The position numbers were made by a program, and so were the translations under genes. The notes below the pieces were generated by a model. It made no database searches. It was not told the DNA's origin and saw only the letters and a program-made list of their open reading frames with translations. A stretch of DNA of 13,212 nucleotides from Promethearchaeota archaeon (GTDB lineage Archaea > Asgardarchaeota > Lokiarchaeia > Sigyniarchaeales > SOKP01): the NCBI GenBank assembly GCA_048941265.1, contig JBHLNT010000117.1, forward strand, positions 1-13,212, in the 5' to 3' direction. Below, piece by piece: positions 1,558 through 9,787 of this stretch. The stretch's first letter is position 1. Each line of letters starts with the position of its first letter.

Positions 1558-3927
1558 ATGACTGATAATTGCTTATTCTGTGATTCTAAAAGTATAGATT
1601 TTAAATGTGAAAAATGTAAATCAAGTTTTTGTCTCAACCATATGGCAACCACCGAGAGTTGGGAATGTAAAAAACATATTGACTTAAAATATTCTAAATC
1701 AGATGCAGTAGAAAATAATTATAAATGTTCCGTTATCGAGAATAGTAGATGTCCTGAATGTGATTCTTTATTGAGAATTAAAAGACTATCTTCGGGACAA
1801 TTTTATTTAAGCTGTACCAAATGTGCTTGGAATTCATATGAAAATACACCAGGTTTATTTTTTCCGTCAAAAGATCAGCTTACAAGAGAAGCAAGAAGAT
1901 ATAACCTTCTTACAGGGTCTTCTATGAAAGAGTGTCAGAAAAAGCTAAAGTACACAAGTGGACGCAGAGTTTGTCCTAATTGTTTTTTAGAGCTTTTAAA
2001 ACGAGCTGTAACTACGAATTTTTCCACAATAATGGACTCATTTAACATTACAGCAGAGCAAATGATCAAATTAATCAAACAGTATATTGAAGAAGATCGG
2101 ATTTATGGAATTATAGACCAGAAAAATCGGATGTTTTATTATATCTCAGATGAAATGAGAGAGAAATTAATTTCAAAAATTCAGAATGAAGGTGCAATTA
2201 AAGTAGCAGATTTAGGAATAATGCTTGATATGAACGCTGAAATGGCCCTTCAAGTAGTTTATAAACTCATTAGTCAGCATCAAATTAGAGGTTCATTTTC
2301 TAAGGAAAAGAAGAATTATTTCACTCAGAAATATATTACTGATAATCTAATTAAAAAGATTAAAGAAAAAGGAAGAATATCTATAGACGATCTAGCCAGA
2401 AATTTTAACATCCCTTCTGAGTTAATCAAAAACTTTTGTGTGAATTTGATGAGAACAAAGATGATTGACGCTTTCTTCGCCGATAGAGGTAAAGAAATTG
2501 TGACTACTGATCAACTACATAATGAAATAAAAAAATATGCGAAAGAAATTGGTGTTGTAAAGCTTAATAAACTTGCTGAAAAAGAGAATATTGCCGAAGA
2601 ACTAGCGCGAAAAACTCTACATGAAATGATTAAACAAGGAGTTATAAGAGGTATTTTCACACAACGCAGAGAATTCATGACGATGAAGCACCTTGAAGTA
2701 AAAATAAAAGAACTTGCCAGAGCGTATAGGAACATGTCATTACGGGAAATTTCAAACAGGTTAGGAATTACAGAAGCAAGTGTGGAAGAAAATTTAGCCA
2801 GATTAATAGGGCAGGGAGATATTGATGGATATATTGATTCAGAAAAAAAATTATTTGTTGCATATAGTGTACCTTTAGAGGGTAGAAAGGCTGCTCCCGC
2901 AAAAGGCAAAGAAGTTAAAGAAGGAGAAAATAACATAGAAGTATTAAGAGATTATGACTTTGAGGGTGGACAGCTTCATTTTAAAGTCGTAGTTAGAAAT
3001 CATAGTACTATGGCAATTAATAATGTGAAAGTTGTCTTAGATGTACCCACCAGTTATAATGTAAAGCAACCATTAATTACTATACCAGTAATAGAGTCAA
3101 ATAATTCCCGAGGAGTAGACTTTTATTTAGAACCAAAAGAATGTGGAATATCCAACATAGGAGGAACTGTAATCTTTAAAAATGCATTAGGCGAACAAAA
3201 TACAATTCATGTGAGGAAGAAAGAGGTTCAGATAAAATGTCCCTTGGTATGTACTTCAATGAGCACTATTGAAGATTGCCAACTTTCGATTCAGGATCTT
3301 CCGAATGATGCTCGAGCTTTTTTAATAGCCGATTTAGATCCAAGACTTGCTTATAGAGCGGCTATTAGAGCGTTAAAATACTTTGAAACAAGCATGGTAA
3401 CATCATATGAGAGCGGAGATGCTGCCAGCTCATATGAGGCTGAAGCCTGGTTCTGTGCAGAAGCAAAAGTCACAGGTGGGCGAATAATTACCAGAATCTT
3501 CGTTTCTGCAGCTAATCAATCTTTAGAAGTTCGCGTTTGGTGTGCAAATCCGGGACAACTCACTGGCTTTTTAGCAAGAGTAATTGAATTATTAATGGAG
3601 CAGATTGGGATAATCAGAAAAATCAAATCAGAAGAACGCGAGATAACAATAAATAGTATGGCTATAACGCAAAATTTAGCAGAGATTTCTGATTATTGTA
3701 TGCTAAGATGGAAAGCTCAAAATATTCGGACTAAATTACATGATACGTTTGTACGATTAAGGAAAATATTGAAAGAAGATGACCCAGTTTTAGATCGAAT
3801 AGAATTTTGGTTGACAAGATTAAATAAGTACGAAAAAGACGATAATATTACTGATGATGATGCGGATAAACTAGTAAATGATGTAGAACAATTCCGAAAT
3901 GTACTTACCAGAAGTCTAAAAATTTAG
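1558..3927 (+). CDS. Multidomain protein: N-terminal Zn fingers, five tandem winged-helix (PCI/DDRGK/UFL1-like) repeats, C-terminal beta-sandwich + alpha/beta + helical region
   Basis: 789-aa ORF. It begins with CxxC-x8-CxxC-x4-CxxH followed by further CxxC pairs. Repeats of about 60 aa follow the pattern GxIx(I/L)xxLA...(L/M)Ixxxx(I)xG, ending in the PCI-like YRNMSLREISNRLGITEASVEENLARLIGQGDIDGYID. The C-terminal domain starts IEVLRDYDFEGGQLHFKVVVRN. Confidence 0.75.
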   Translation: MTDNCLFCDSKSIDFKCEKCKSSFCLNHMATTESWECKKHIDLKYSKSDAVENNYKCSVIENSRCPECDSLLRIKRLSSGQFYLSCTKCAWNSYENTPGLFFPSKDQLTREARRYNLLTGSSMKECQKKLKYTSGRRVCPNCFLELLKRAVTTNFSTIMDSFNITAEQMIKLIKQYIEEDRIYGIIDQKNRMFYYISDEMREKLISKIQNEGAIKVADLGIMLDMNAEMALQVVYKLISQHQIRGSFSKEKKNYFTQKYITDNLIKKIKEKGRISIDDLARNFNIPSELIKNFCVNLMRTKMIDAFFADRGKEIVTTDQLHNEIKKYAKEIGVVKLNKLAEKENIAEELARKTLHEMIKQGVIRGIFTQRREFMTMKHLEVKIKELARAYRNMSLREISNRLGITEASVEENLARLIGQGDIDGYIDSEKKLFVAYSVPLEGRKAAPAKGKEVKEGENNIEVLRDYDFEGGQLHFKVVVRNHSTMAINNVKVVLDVPTSYNVKQPLITIPVIESNNSRGVDFYLEPKECGISNIGGTVIFKNALGEQNTIHVRKKEVQIKCPLVCTSMSTIEDCQLSIQDLPNDARAFLIADLDPRLAYRAAIRALKYFETSMVTSYESGDAASSYEAEAWFCAEAKVTGGRIITRIFVSAANQSLEVRVWCANPGQLTGFLARVIELLMEQIGIIRKIKSEEREITINSMAITQNLAEISDYCMLRWKAQNIRTKLHDTFVRLRKILKEDDPVLDRIEFWLTRLNKYEKDDNITDDDADKLVNDVEQFRNVLTRSLKI

Positions 3928-4878: not shown

Positions 4879-4976
4879 TAGCCCGACCAGGATTCGAACC
4901 TGGGTCTCGGGATTCAGAGTCCCAAATGCATTGCCTTCTAGTTTTTGCTAAAATTTGGCCACTACACTATCGGGCT
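4879..4976 (-). tRNA. tRNA-Gln(CUG) with 25-nt intron in the D-loop (intron 4930..4954)
   Basis: Minus strand: AGCCCGA TA GTGT AGTGGCCAA [ATTTTAGCAAAAACTAGAAGGCAAT] GCAT T TGGGA CT-CTG-AA TCCCG AGAC CCAGG TTCGAAT CCTGG TCGGGCT A. Removing the intron gives a 73-nt cloverleaf with the A1-U72 pair typical of archaeal tRNA-Gln. CCA is not encoded. Confidence 0.95.
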
Positions 4977-5155
4977 TTTATAGGTAAAAAAAGTTAAATT
5001 AATATAATTTAGAAATTCTAAAAAATTTTTCTTTTAGTGAGTTTGGAAAAAAACTTTTTTATGGAATATAATCTGAAATATAATAATAGAAAAATTATTA
5101 TTTTGTAAATAAAATTAGAGATAGATTTATTAGTAGTTGCAATCATATATTAAAT

Positions 5156-5324
5156 TGGATTACACAAAAAAAGAGAAGATATTTTAAAAAAAAGTTTCGG
5201 CTATTAAACTTGTTATGTAAAACCCCTGCCGAAATTCAAAACCCCGTGAGGTGGTGGCTAATTTCGCCCCGCTCGGGAAACTGAAAAAAAAACTTATTAT
5301 ATATCTTCCGATTTGTGTAATCCA
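5156..5324 (+). ncRNA. Candidate structured non-coding RNA of unknown class (~170 nt)
   Basis: A perfect 13-bp terminal inverted repeat (5156-5168/5312-5324) and a nested 8-bp stem (5175-5182/5301-5308) enclose a GC-rich core of hairpins, including GTGA and GAAA tetraloops, within an AT-rich spacer. The strand is inferred from GNRA loops and G-U pairs. Confidence 0.55.
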
Positions 5325-5493
5325 CCCTTTCCATTTATCTAGTTAAACCATATAATACACTTCACTTGATTTTTCTTAAAAAATAGTTAAATCTACAATT
5401 TAGATTGTAAGTTACTACTTAAATTATGAAAATATCGAAATTTAGTTATTTAAACGGATTTATTTTTGAAAACTAAGTTAAAAATTTTTTTTC

Positions 5494-7876: not shown

Positions 7877-9787
7877 TCATTTTAAAATGATAGTTTCTCT
7901 ATTTTTTGGAGCTTTGGTGGCTTTCCTTAATTTTTTGTGAATCATCGTTGATAAGCTTACACATTTGCTCTCTTCTCCATGATTAGTTATAACTATTTTA
8001 GGTCTTGGTTGAATTCGGCGCAGAAATTGTGATATTTGACTCCTTGATGAATGTCCACTAAAACCTTCCAGAGTAAAAACATTCAAATTTAGTTTTACTA
8101 ACTGAGTTCTTCCTTTTGCGTCAACGTATTGAAATTCTCGAAATCCTCGTTGAATTCTATTACCAAGCGTTCCAGCAACCTGATAAGAAACAAAAATTAG
8201 GGCACTATTTTTATCATTTGCTAAACCTTTTAAATATTGAACAGAAGGACCTCCAATTAACATACCACTTGTAGCCATAATAATACAAGGTCCTCCTTTC
8301 AGCACATCTAATCTTTCCTCATGAGCCGTAATAGTAGTAAAAAAGTCGCTTAAAAATGGATTTTTACCTTGATGTAGTATTTTTTCTCTTAGATCACTAC
8401 TTAGAAAATCAGGGTTAGCAGTATGAATAGCCGTAGCTTCACTGATTAATCCGTCAAGAAAAATAGGAACATTTTGAATCACTTCTTTCGAAATAAATTC
8501 TTCTAGAATTATTATTAGTTCTTGCGCCCTTCCTACTGCCAATACAGGGATTAAAATTTTTCCTCCTTTATTAATCGTTGAGTTTAAGATTTGTTTGAGC
8601 TCTCTTTCTGATTCGTGCCGGCTAGGAATTCGATCTTGCGGTCCACCATAAGTAGCTTCAAGAAGCAAACTCTCCACTCTAGGAAATTTAACATTAGCTT
8701 TTTCTAGCAATCGGGTTTTTTGAAATTTAAAATCCCCAGTATATACAAAATTATACCCTCCCTTTCCAAAGTGTAAGTGTACGATCGAAGAGCCCAATAT
8801 ATGACCAGAATTATGGAGCGTCAATTTAATATCCGGAGCTATATCAGTAACTTTACCCCATGAAAGCGGAATCGTATGAAGTACTGTTGTCTTTACATCT
8901 CTCTTAGAATATGGGCTTATAACCCCCTCCTTCTCACATATTTGGACATAATCTAATTGCAGCATTGTTGATAGGTTTCTAGTAGGTAATGTACAATAAA
9001 CAGGACCCCTATAACCGTATTTGAAAAGGAAAGGTACAAGTCCACAATGATCCAAATGTGCATGAGAAACGATTACTGCATCTAAATCTCGCACACTGAA
9101 TTCTGGAATTTCAAAAAAAGGATATTTTTCATTCGGATTTCCTACATTTAATCCACAATCAAGTAAGACATTACTATCTCTGGTTTGCATAAGGATACAA
9201 GACCTTCCAACTTCCCGAAATCCACCTAAAGAGGTCATACGGACACATAGATCATTAAAAAGGATTGGACGATGTATTCTTTTCCCAATAATTAATAAAA
9301 TTTCTTTCTGAGTTTTTCTTTCTTGCTTGAGCATCCCCCTAATTAATTGGATAGTCCGTGATGTTAATGGAGGTGTTCTTATGGTTTTTGGTTGCCAGAA
9401 GGTATTAGCTCGAATTTCTTTCAAATTGACTCCTTTTTTACCAATAACTAATCCTGGTTTACCCGATTCAATTATAACTTCCCCTCTAGTATGATCAAAT
9501 TCAATAGCCGAAATCTCCGCTTCCTCACCTACTAAATTTCTTATATAATCTTCTGTTTCATTAGGATCCTTTCTTTTTTCTACATTCCATCGAAAAACTA
9601 CTCTCTTCCTCATTATTTTTGCTAGATCCTTAAGAACAGTTGAATTATCATCCAGACTTAAATCTGAATTCTCAGAATAAACAGCAATTTCAGGACCCTC
9701 AAATTCAATTTTTTGTACTTTTATTTCAGCAGGAAGATTAGAGACAATCTCATCTTTAATTCTTTGTAATTCACTCTCAAAACTCAT
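7877..9787 (-). CDS. fttA: aCPSF1/FttA: KH-domain beta-CASP ribonuclease (archaeal transcription termination factor)
   Basis: 636 aa. It has N-terminal KH domains (IEFEGPEIAVY, KPGLVIGKKG), LGGFREVGRSC, the metallo-beta-lactamase SHAHLDH, GHILGS, YTGD, EATYG, GFSGHS and NHGE. Confidence 0.95.
   Translation of the reverse strand: MSFESELQRIKDEIVSNLPAEIKVQKIEFEGPEIAVYSENSDLSLDDNSTVLKDLAKIMRKRVVFRWNVEKRKDPNETEDYIRNLVGEEAEISAIEFDHTRGEVIIESGKPGLVIGKKGVNLKEIRANTFWQPKTIRTPPLTSRTIQLIRGMLKQERKTQKEILLIIGKRIHRPILFNDLCVRMTSLGGFREVGRSCILMQTRDSNVLLDCGLNVGNPNEKYPFFEIPEFSVRDLDAVIVSHAHLDHCGLVPFLFKYGYRGPVYCTLPTRNLSTMLQLDYVQICEKEGVISPYSKRDVKTTVLHTIPLSWGKVTDIAPDIKLTLHNSGHILGSSIVHLHFGKGGYNFVYTGDFKFQKTRLLEKANVKFPRVESLLLEATYGGPQDRIPSRHESERELKQILNSTINKGGKILIPVLAVGRAQELIIILEEFISKEVIQNVPIFLDGLISEATAIHTANPDFLSSDLREKILHQGKNPFLSDFFTTITAHEERLDVLKGGPCIIMATSGMLIGGPSVQYLKGLANDKNSALIFVSYQVAGTLGNRIQRGFREFQYVDAKGRTQLVKLNLNVFTLEGFSGHSSRSQISQFLRRIQPRPKIVITNHGEESKCVSLSTMIHKKLRKATKAPKNRETIILK

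Follow-up and report, generated by a model that had tools for sequence, protein, structure and literature searches.

The 13,212-nucleotide (nt) stretch of DNA analyzed here (contig JBHLNT010000117.1 of a Promethearchaeota archaeon, hereafter the window) comes from a 5.0-Mb assembly in 361 contigs that is 91% complete (G000) and, by Pfam matches, encodes HisF, a DsbD-like membrane protein, a 789-residue UFL1/DDRGK/PCI/Vps28-type protein, a ribbon-helix-helix (RHH) protein, a parvulin, an HD/dGTPase-like protein (dgt), a ferredoxin-type protein, FttA/aCPSF1, PurN and EF-2. Beside the dgt gene, at positions 5156-5324, the original prediction, made from the sequence alone, had placed a structured noncoding RNA (ncRNA) of an undescribed class, independently transcribed and not the 5′ leader of any protein gene. 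The helices, the repeat, the TTTATTA box (5126-5132) and the pyrimidine tail that it described all lie where it had put them, the location outside any 5′ leader is borne out, and the comparative analyses presented below make it very probable that the element is a genuine gene for a structured ncRNA whose family is undescribed. As such it is an orphan RNA class, confined to one family in Lokiarchaeia-type Asgard archaea, and its novelty lies at the level of class only.

Fold and coordinates of the element

On the plus strand, positions 5156-5324 fold with a minimum free energy (MFE) of -50.1 kcal/mol, a value equaled by 0 of 200 dinucleotide shuffles (-27.3 ± 3.6 kcal/mol; z = -6.28); the minus strand of the same stretch folds with z = -4.93. 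The RNA gene contains no open reading frame of note. Its two ends pair into a terminal helix, P1, followed by a second helix, P2, and a GC-rich core (Table 1), and AAAACCCC is present twice, at 5219-5226 and 5238-5245. The UUUCGG strand of the core has two possible partners, GCCGAAAU in a local hairpin or, in a duplex fold of the window arms, CUGAAA; the latter pairing would be the counterpart of helix P4 of other genera and may form in G000. The loop of the local hairpin holds the family motifs AAACUUGUUAUGU (5206-5218) and AAAACCCCU (5219-5227), a content that in other genera is closed instead by P4 (UCAGUUU/AAACUGA).

Two of the features first read from the window look different once relatives are considered. 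The GC-rich multibranch core is present there, but it is mostly not the conserved part of the RNA, with the 5194-5235 hairpin found only in G000, G001 and G003 and the 5250-5274 hairpin in 17 of 64 copies. The hairpin spanning 5243-5277, put forward as an alternative conformation, is predicted as part of the MFE structure itself, but the switch proposed on its basis is not a feature of the family.

Table 1. Coordinates of the RNA gene, its helices and motifs, and its flanking signals in the window
Feature	Position	Strand	Basis
RNA gene as matched by covariance model R1	5156-5326	+	90.8 bits, E ~1e-12, model positions 1-149 of 149
BRE/TATA-like box AGATAGATTTATTA (BRE, B recognition element); TTTATT part starts 30 nt before the first model base	5119-5132	+	Sequence, family promoter count
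P1, 5′ strand of the terminal helix, TGGATTACACAAA; 13-bp pairing; UGGAUUACAC portion near-invariant	5156-5168	+	Folds, alignment counts
P1, 3′ strand, TTTGTGTAATCCA	5312-5324	+	Folds, alignment counts
P2, 5′ strand, G5173 + GAAGAUAU; GGAGGAU in most relatives; includes GAAGATAT (5175-5182), in 8-bp pairing with ATATCTTC (5301-5308)	5173-5182	+	Folds, alignment counts
P2, 3′ strand, AUAUCUUC + C5309	5301-5309	+	Folds, alignment counts
Core hairpin GUUUCGGC/GCCGAAAU, 26-nt loop; pairing arms GTTTCGGC (5194-5201) and GCCGAAAT (5228-5235); only G000, G001, G003	5194-5235	+	Fold and family alignment
UUUCGG; alternative pairing with CUGAAA 5281-5286 instead of 5229-5234	5195-5200	+	Duplex fold
Signature motif AAAACCCCGUGA	5238-5249	+	Family alignment, genome pattern search
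Optional insert hairpin GGUGGUGGC-UAAUUUC-GCCCCGCU, plus CGGG (5274-5277) pairing back to CCCG (5243-5246)	5250-5277	+	Fold, family alignment
ACUGA motif, then A run	5280-5292	+	Family alignment
Pyrimidine/T-rich tract CCCTTTCCATTT, likely termination zone	5325-5336	+	Sequence

Distribution, copy number and synteny

A BLAST-type search of 40 relatives returned full-length homologues (82-83% identity) in two genomes of the same genus and partial ones in other genera, and an alignment of eight homologues revealed invariant ends, a conserved upstream box and internal motifs set in an otherwise variable core. When 154 genomes of the order were searched with a pattern describing the two ends, 87 matched, and almost all of these belong to a single family, f1 (80/134); the matches in family f2 sit in ordinary-looking sequence and are put down to chance. 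With a covariance model (R1) built from 21 copies, one full-length copy was found in 97 of 135 family genomes, and a second match, weak and partial, in one genome only. Two further genomes missed in this first search (G013 and G012) were recovered when fewer genomes were searched, which brings the count to 99/135 at one copy each. Across 19 genomes of three sister families (f2-f4) R1 gave no convincing match: a lone hit with E = 0.7 reads like coding sequence, and in three f2 genomes no such RNA lies next to the dgt homologue.

The extended signature ACCCCGTG-N(0-45)-CTGAA-N(2-22)-AACCC occurs once per genome in 73/134 family genomes and in 0/26 genomes of six other families of the class (f2-f7), with about four matches in total for the reversed-pattern control. 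A wide scan with a signature-like pattern over one genome per species (185,579 species) yielded 86 stretches; among the 80 of these that were listed, R1 confirms 38, all with titles of archaeal metagenome-assembled genomes, mostly Promethearchaeota or Promethearchaeia, some 'uncultured archaeon' and six bearing other Asgard phylum labels from their depositors. The other 42 listed stretches have bacterial titles, longer gaps and no R1 match, and are thus chance matches. Within the 5.0 Mb of G000 the only full-length match to the element is the element itself, and its terminal 13-mer occurs exactly only at the two arms; one mismatch admits 15 further matches, about as many as in the reversed-pattern control (17 vs. 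11).

Gene clusters within 3 kb of the RNA were counted at 61 loci. The HD/dGTPase-like cluster is found near the RNA in 48 of them, in 44 downstream on the opposite strand, convergent and at a median gap of 96 nt, while upstream, on the RNA's own strand, lie the RHH gene (39/61), the parvulin gene (37/61) and the UFL1-like gene (32/61). A tRNA gene called by ARAGORN precedes the RNA in at least 33/61 loci, nearly always on the opposite strand; it is Gln-CUG in 26, many with introns. The syntenic position of the RNA is the same across nine genera. This neighbourhood is one of conserved synteny, and nothing in the neighbours indicates a functional partner. We regard the element as a genuine vertically inherited single-copy gene.

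Common secondary structure

To count base pairs across the family, the structure of one member was mapped onto a model-guided alignment (A4) of 64 copies. In total, 88.2% of 1722 cells are paired, compared with 85.5 ± 0.3% in shuffles and 35-52% with slid partners. Pairs with changes on both sides number 16, vs. 8.2 ± 1.9 in shuffles, and 0 of 500 shuffles reach 16, counts to be read with caution, as shuffles overstate significance for related sequences and the P1 columns of A4, and only these, were fitted to P1. The original prediction had made an RNA role depend on a transcript and on conservation or covariation; conservation is seen in 99/135 family genomes, and compensatory changes in these 16 doubly changed pairs.

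P1 (helix 1) is paired in 99.5% of cases in the 64 sequences and shows double changes at 8/9 pairs. P2 (helix 2), to which the alignment was not fitted, is paired in 82.7%, P3 in 81.2%, and P4 (helix 5) in 85.1%, with double changes at 3/6 pairs. RNAalifold on the raw MAFFT alignment recovers P1 alone, and the inner helices were derived from per-sequence duplex folds together with the structure mapped onto the model-guided alignment. The duplex folds converge on a common rod that opens with a P1 of 9-13 bp and continues, across a loop of 5 to ~20 nt on the 5′ strand vs. 0-3 nt on the 3′ strand, into P2. The majority of members have GGAGGAU/AUCCUCC in P2, the group of the window has GAAGAUAU/AUAUCUUC, and AAAGGAUAG/CUAUCCUUU or GGAGAAU/AUUCUCC is found elsewhere. 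P3 (AAAAAG/CUUUUU) and P4 (UCAGUUU/AAACUGA) follow in many genera. P1 (UGGAUUACAC/GUGUAAUCCA) is invariant in most genera and carries paired substitutions in others (GGAUUAUACA/UGUAUAAUCC, GGAUUACGCAC/GUGCGUAGUCC, GUGGAUGCAC/GUGCAUCCAC and UGGUGGAUGU/ACAUCCACCA), and P4 covaries likewise (UUCGGUUU/AAACUGAA and UUUCGGCUU/AAGCUGGA). Inspection of the family sequences by eye found neither a kink-turn (K-turn) at the P1/P2 junction nor a bulge-helix-bulge motif of the kind that would serve circularization.

Promoter, strand and probable transcript ends

A TTTWWW box starts between -33 and -26 from the first model position in 63/64 copies, 61 of them at -30/-29, and a longer AGATAGATTT-type box (GAT[AC]..T.T) lies at -37 to -34 in 53/64. 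A BRE/TATA pair is the archaeal promoter geometry, in which the TATA box sits ~25-30 nt upstream of the transcription start; this spacing places the start at about G5157, in the first base pair of P1. The two strands are clearly distinguishable: R1 scores are 47-138 bits on the RNA strand vs. 32-36 bits for reverse-strand matches of other members, and the RNA strand is composed of 39% A, 29% U, 19% C and 13.5% G. Its G+C fraction is 0.32, vs. 0.15 in the flanks. Oligo-T terminates archaeal transcription, and a run of at least four T is found within 27 nt downstream in 40/64 copies; in the window the pyrimidine tract has only T3 runs.

Judged by this promoter and by the strand asymmetry, the gene appears to be transcribed from its own promoter on the plus strand, with a transcript that probably runs from G5157 to the T-rich tract at ~5328-5336. 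The original interpretation as a whole, an independently transcribed ncRNA of an undescribed class, is supported in its main point by the lack of any Rfam match, the single copy, the conservation, the compensatory changes and the BRE/TATA-like box at a fixed distance. The RNA measures about 115-205 nt in the family and 171 nt in the window.

Conserved tip motifs and the optional insert

Beyond the helices, CC(C)CGUG followed by CUGA is found in 64/64 copies. The gap between CCCCGUG and CUGA is at most 6 nt in 40/64 (typically CCCCGUG(UG)ACUGA), 7-20 nt in 7 and more than 20 nt in 17, and 16 of the 17 long-gap copies carry a hairpin insert of 30-34 nt ending in GGGAA(A/UG)ACUGA; three genera have the insert, the window being one case. 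Of the 64 copies, 45 have two A-runs followed by a C-run, 13 have one, 4 have three and 2 have none, and ACUGR occurs one to three times per RNA in 64/64. These motifs tend to be exposed in the predicted folds: the 122 CCC(C)GU motifs of the 64 RNAs have a mean unpaired probability of 0.73, vs. 0.45 over all positions, and 84% of them exceed 0.5. Set against 63 relatives, the GC-rich core of the window proves largely lineage-specific. The conserved information is the terminal helix plus short single-stranded, variably spaced motifs, and not the GC-rich hairpins.

The insert itself (window 5250-5277) sits at a fixed point, has a near-constant size and a conserved 3′ GGGAA, and is absent from close relatives of each of the three genera; its stems differ in sequence and yet stay paired. 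It may be either ancestral, with repeated loss, or an expansion segment with repeated gain.

Comparison with known RNAs

Rfam 15 gave no match over the whole window at gathering thresholds, and permissive scans of the window (E up to 10) and of seven diverse relatives (E up to 5) returned nothing overlapping 5156-5324 and nothing on the RNA, respectively, in agreement with the earlier view that no known RNA class accounts for it. The element is neither the signal recognition particle (SRP) RNA nor the RNase P RNA of this genome, both of which were found on other contigs of G000: an SRP RNA-like match on C271 (69.4 bits, full model length, under the 96.5-bit cut-off) and the RNase P RNA on C190 (121.6 bits, over the cut-off). 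The part of the literature that full-text searching reached yielded no publication describing an RNA like this one from Asgard or Lokiarchaeal sources. A telomerase-like template role for AAAACCCC was also considered and rejected, as G000 is without GGGGTTTTGGGG and has AAAACCCCGT only six times, never in arrays or in other RNA-like contexts.

The closest resemblance in overall design is to Y RNAs, which are bound by Ro60 in eukaryotes and some bacteria, and to vault RNAs. As these are generally described, they share with the present RNA a small stand-alone gene, 5′ and 3′ ends that form a conserved terminal helix followed by a short pyrimidine- or U-rich tail, and a rod whose internal loop is asymmetric and whose distal portion is modular and varies. 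Unlike Y RNAs, however, the family has no match to the Rfam Y_RNA model, a different conserved helix sequence, its own C-rich repeats distally and lengths of up to 206 nt. TROVE/Ro60 (PF05731) has 0 matches in the 91%-complete G000, in a search whose control was positive in 2 of 14 known genomes. With no TROVE gene in G000 and no model match, membership among Y RNAs is rejected; of the likeness to 6S and Y RNAs originally drawn, the shared rod shape holds, but it stays an analogy. CsrB/RsmZ and 6S RNAs are bacterial families tied to CsrA and to σ70-RNA polymerase, respectively, and CsrB/RsmZ repeat GGA motifs. The present RNA is CsrB-like in repeating a short single-stranded motif on a structured carrier and 6S-like in its overall rod shape and single-copy gene, but the motif it repeats, CCCCGU(G)/ACUGA, is present in low number (122 CCC(C)GU in 64 RNAs), it has no symmetric central bubble, and it matches neither model.

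Archaeal C/D and H/ACA small RNAs (sRNAs) are alike in being archaeal small RNAs with CUGA/GUGA tetranucleotides and a terminal stem made of both ends. The defining boxes and pocket of these classes nevertheless fail in the 64 copies, and membership is rejected on these grounds: there is no C box (0/64) and no CUGA beside the terminal stem (0/64), the RNA is two to three times longer than C/D sRNAs generally are, a 3-nt ACA tail is present in 2/64 only, and the P1/P2 loop, with 0-3 nt on its 3′ strand, offers no pseudouridylation pocket. Klein, Misulovin and Eddy reportedly described, in 2002, Hgc RNAs as GC-rich islands in AT-rich archaeal genomes. The present RNA resembles these in being detectable as a G+C island and in being an orphan structured RNA; it belongs to a different sequence family, and the Rfam Hgc models are without match.

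The neighbouring tRNA and further observations on the locus

The tRNA-Gln that the original prediction placed beside the element is present, with its strand and extent corrected to the minus strand, 4879-4976. The default ARAGORN call, 4879-4943, is partial. The tRNA-Gln(CUG) is 98 nt long, and its matching 5′ half (AGCCCGAUAGUGUAGUGG...) lies ~25 nt further upstream than the 65-nt ARAGORN call, which scores 25.9 bits with the Rfam model (below 29); ARAGORN with intron search spans 4879-4976 and assigns a wrong name. The extra bases fall in the D-loop region and not at the canonical 37/38 site, and therefore look like a noncanonical intron; the relatives' version of this tRNA has an intron at the canonical position, or none.

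Among the neighbours, the 789-residue protein (1558-3927, plus strand) has DDRGK, UFL1-type winged-helix/PCI and Vps28-C matches, and an FttA/aCPSF1-type termination/cleavage factor (KH + β-CASP + RMMBL) is encoded at 7877-9787 on the minus strand, 2.5 kb downstream of the RNA. The latter is near the RNA in only 7/61 loci and is thus probably unrelated. As for the assemblies themselves, no 16S or 23S rRNA genes were found in G000 with small- and large-subunit models, and the one-contig genome G067 gave only a 53-nt large-subunit fragment; the rRNA operons seem missing or masked in both. The top-enriched 5-mers 3-22 nt upstream of crudely called gene starts in G000 (AGTGA, AGGTG, GAGGT, GTGAA and GGTGA) point to a long GGAGGTGA-type Shine-Dalgarno motif.

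Discussion

To our knowledge, almost nothing is known of noncoding RNAs in Asgard archaea. For the RNA described here we put forward, as a candidate role and with somewhat less than even confidence, that it is a stable scaffold or decoy RNA displaying repeated C-rich protein-binding sites. The repeated exposed motifs, their variable spacing, the modular insertions, the invariant terminal helix, the strong fixed promoter and the strict single copy all suggest this reading, and variable motif spacing with modular hairpins at fixed points is usual for scaffold RNAs of ribonucleoproteins (RNPs). The plus-strand transcript would start from its own BRE/TATA promoter at G5157, the G of UGGAUUAC, and end in the T-rich tract after 5324. 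It would fold into a long irregular rod, with P1 formed from both ends, an internal loop on the 5′ strand, P2 and, in many genera, P3 and P4, and with a distal end predicted to be an A-rich, weakly paired domain showing AAACUNNUUUUU, an A-run plus CCCCGU(G), and ACUGA; one fixed site there can take up a GC hairpin of ~30 nt, as in the window. The rod with its paired ends would serve as a stable, protective handle, and the exposed C-rich and ACUGA sites may be bound by a sequence-specific RNA-binding protein, as a multimer or in several copies, making the RNA the putative scaffold or decoy of an RNP, like CsrB, 6S, Y or 7SK RNAs, and not a modification guide.

Several observations weigh against this proposal. 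A purely structural handle does not account for the near-invariance of P1 in most genera, none of the conserved neighbours is a candidate for binding RNA and they may be linked to it by plain synteny, and the main CCCCGU motif of the window is partly paired, with an unpaired probability of only 0.34, because the insert pairs back onto it. The RNA also went undetected in 36/135 family genomes, a count that already allows for the recovery of G013 and G012. Among these are the genomes of genus g8 (0/5 with the RNA), two of them 100% complete, where dgt adjoins a different gene and no RNA lies beside it, and the 99%-complete G006 has lost both the RNA and dgt at the syntenic place. Its absence from detection in g8 and its loss in G006 mean that the RNA may be dispensable, or may have diverged beyond detection. 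Five RNA-negative genomes (G019, G060, G058, G066 and G020) likewise yielded neither of the neighbouring genes, dgt and parvulin, and the locus may simply be missing from those assemblies; in G008 the contig stops just past the parvulin gene.

The syntenic place in G006 (L151, ~1330-1420, read on the minus strand) retains the parvulin gene, a fragment resembling the 3′ end of the tRNA and a promoter-like box, caggtagatttattat; where the RNA and dgt would be expected, a leucine-rich-repeat-like gene follows. A local replacement seems to have taken out the two together.

The alternative that survives best, although we consider it unlikely, is a trans-acting antisense regulator whose exposed ACCCCGU repeats act as seeds that pair with G-rich stretches of mRNAs. 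C-rich regions of RsaE/RoxS of Firmicutes pair with ribosome-binding sites, and the family resembles these and sRNA41 of Methanosarcina in having several unpaired C-rich regions per small RNA. Its C-rich motifs are repeated, conserved, A-flanked and predicted to be unpaired (with two A-flanked C-runs in 45/64), and the gene stands alone with its own promoter. However, a weak test, on crudely called gene starts in a single genome, shows no clear enrichment of the expected targets in G000: the complement ACGGGG occurs in 6 of 4392 start regions (-30 to +6), rank 11 among 30 letter permutations, CACGGGG occurs in 0 of the 4392, and the ribosome-binding motif enriched in this genome is of GGAGGUGA type, not G4. 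The long terminal rod and the ACUGA motif are moreover foreign to those sRNA families, and an invariant terminal helix together with ACUGA would be superfluous in such a regulator.

We give a still lower chance to a ligand-sensing, catalytic or otherwise self-acting RNA, in which the unpaired AAACU, CCCCGUGA and ACUGA would build a tertiary core at the tip of the rod, possibly with a switch between two pairings of the 5′ UCAGU/UUUCGG strand. The location of conserved nucleotides in loops and junctions rather than helices agrees with this, as does the choice of partners for the P4 5′ strand, which can pair with one or the other of two ACUGA copies (in the window, with GCCGAAAU or CUGAAA). A precise tertiary core is nonetheless a poor fit to motifs whose spacing ranges from 0 to more than 30 nt and to whole hairpins that come and go; in addition, no known ribozyme or riboswitch model was matched in the Rfam scans, and the RNA is not located in a 5′ leader.

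Very improbable, in our view, is a divergent K-turn (C/D-like) guide or chaperone RNP, with GUGA and CUGA as degenerate C/D boxes for L7Ae and flanks that pair with rRNA. GUGA followed by CUGA does recur in 64/64 copies, and by reading of the sequence GUGAGG and CUGA of the window are in principle able to form G.A/A.G, G.U and G-C pairs. Against this, RUGAUGA and UGAUGA are each found in 0/64, 0/64 have CUGA among their final 25 nt, and no Rfam C/D or H/ACA model matches. In 40/64 copies the boxes are at most 6 nt apart and so cannot fold onto each other, and in copies with a hairpin between the boxes, the GA that a K-turn requires is missing from the strand 5′ of the GGG stem.

A function at the level of DNA, with inverted protein-binding sites around an AT-rich stretch, as in an origin with origin recognition box-like sequences or a recombination site by a tRNA gene, is harder still to credit. 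The element is single-copy, it has A/T-rich DNA with G/C strings between terminal inverted repeats (TGGA...TCCA), it adjoins a tRNA gene, and concerted change in two copies of one binding site would mimic covariation. Yet four nested helices with independent changes are hard to square with one binding site, the inner motifs are strongly strand-asymmetric, in 63/64 copies the first repeat has a TATA box at a fixed distance of 26-33 nt, no further repeat copies lie nearby, and Orc1/Cdc6 (Cdc6_C) genes come no closer than 476 kb in G067 and 539 kb in G001. Lastly, a miniature inverted-repeat transposable element or mobile-element relic, which the original prediction had entertained should dispersed copies exist and which the 13-bp perfect terminal inverted repeats would suit, is refuted for practical purposes by the one copy in the 5.0 Mb of G000, where no other stretch resembles the whole element, by one full-length copy per genome in 97 genomes, and by the same syntenic position in nine genera.

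Returning to the proposed scaffold or decoy RNA, a more specific and rather doubtful version of it would have the molecule as the RNA subunit of a lineage-specific Asgard ribonucleoprotein, a terminal-stem RNA with an oligo-pyrimidine tail and repeated C-rich sites, comparable to the eukaryotic Y, vault and 7SK scaffold/decoy class, with an uncharacterized Asgard RNA-binding protein as its partner. Asgard archaea are the closest known prokaryotic relatives of eukaryotes. Whatever its role, the gene adds a well-defined RNA family, found in ~100 genomes at one copy each, with a fixed promoter, a covarying rod and a once-per-genome sequence signature, and the covariance model makes this family annotatable at once. 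Should it encode the RNA component of a new RNP, the known inventory of these archaea would grow by a lineage-specific RNA-protein machine; should it encode a regulator, it would provide a first handle on riboregulation in the lineage.

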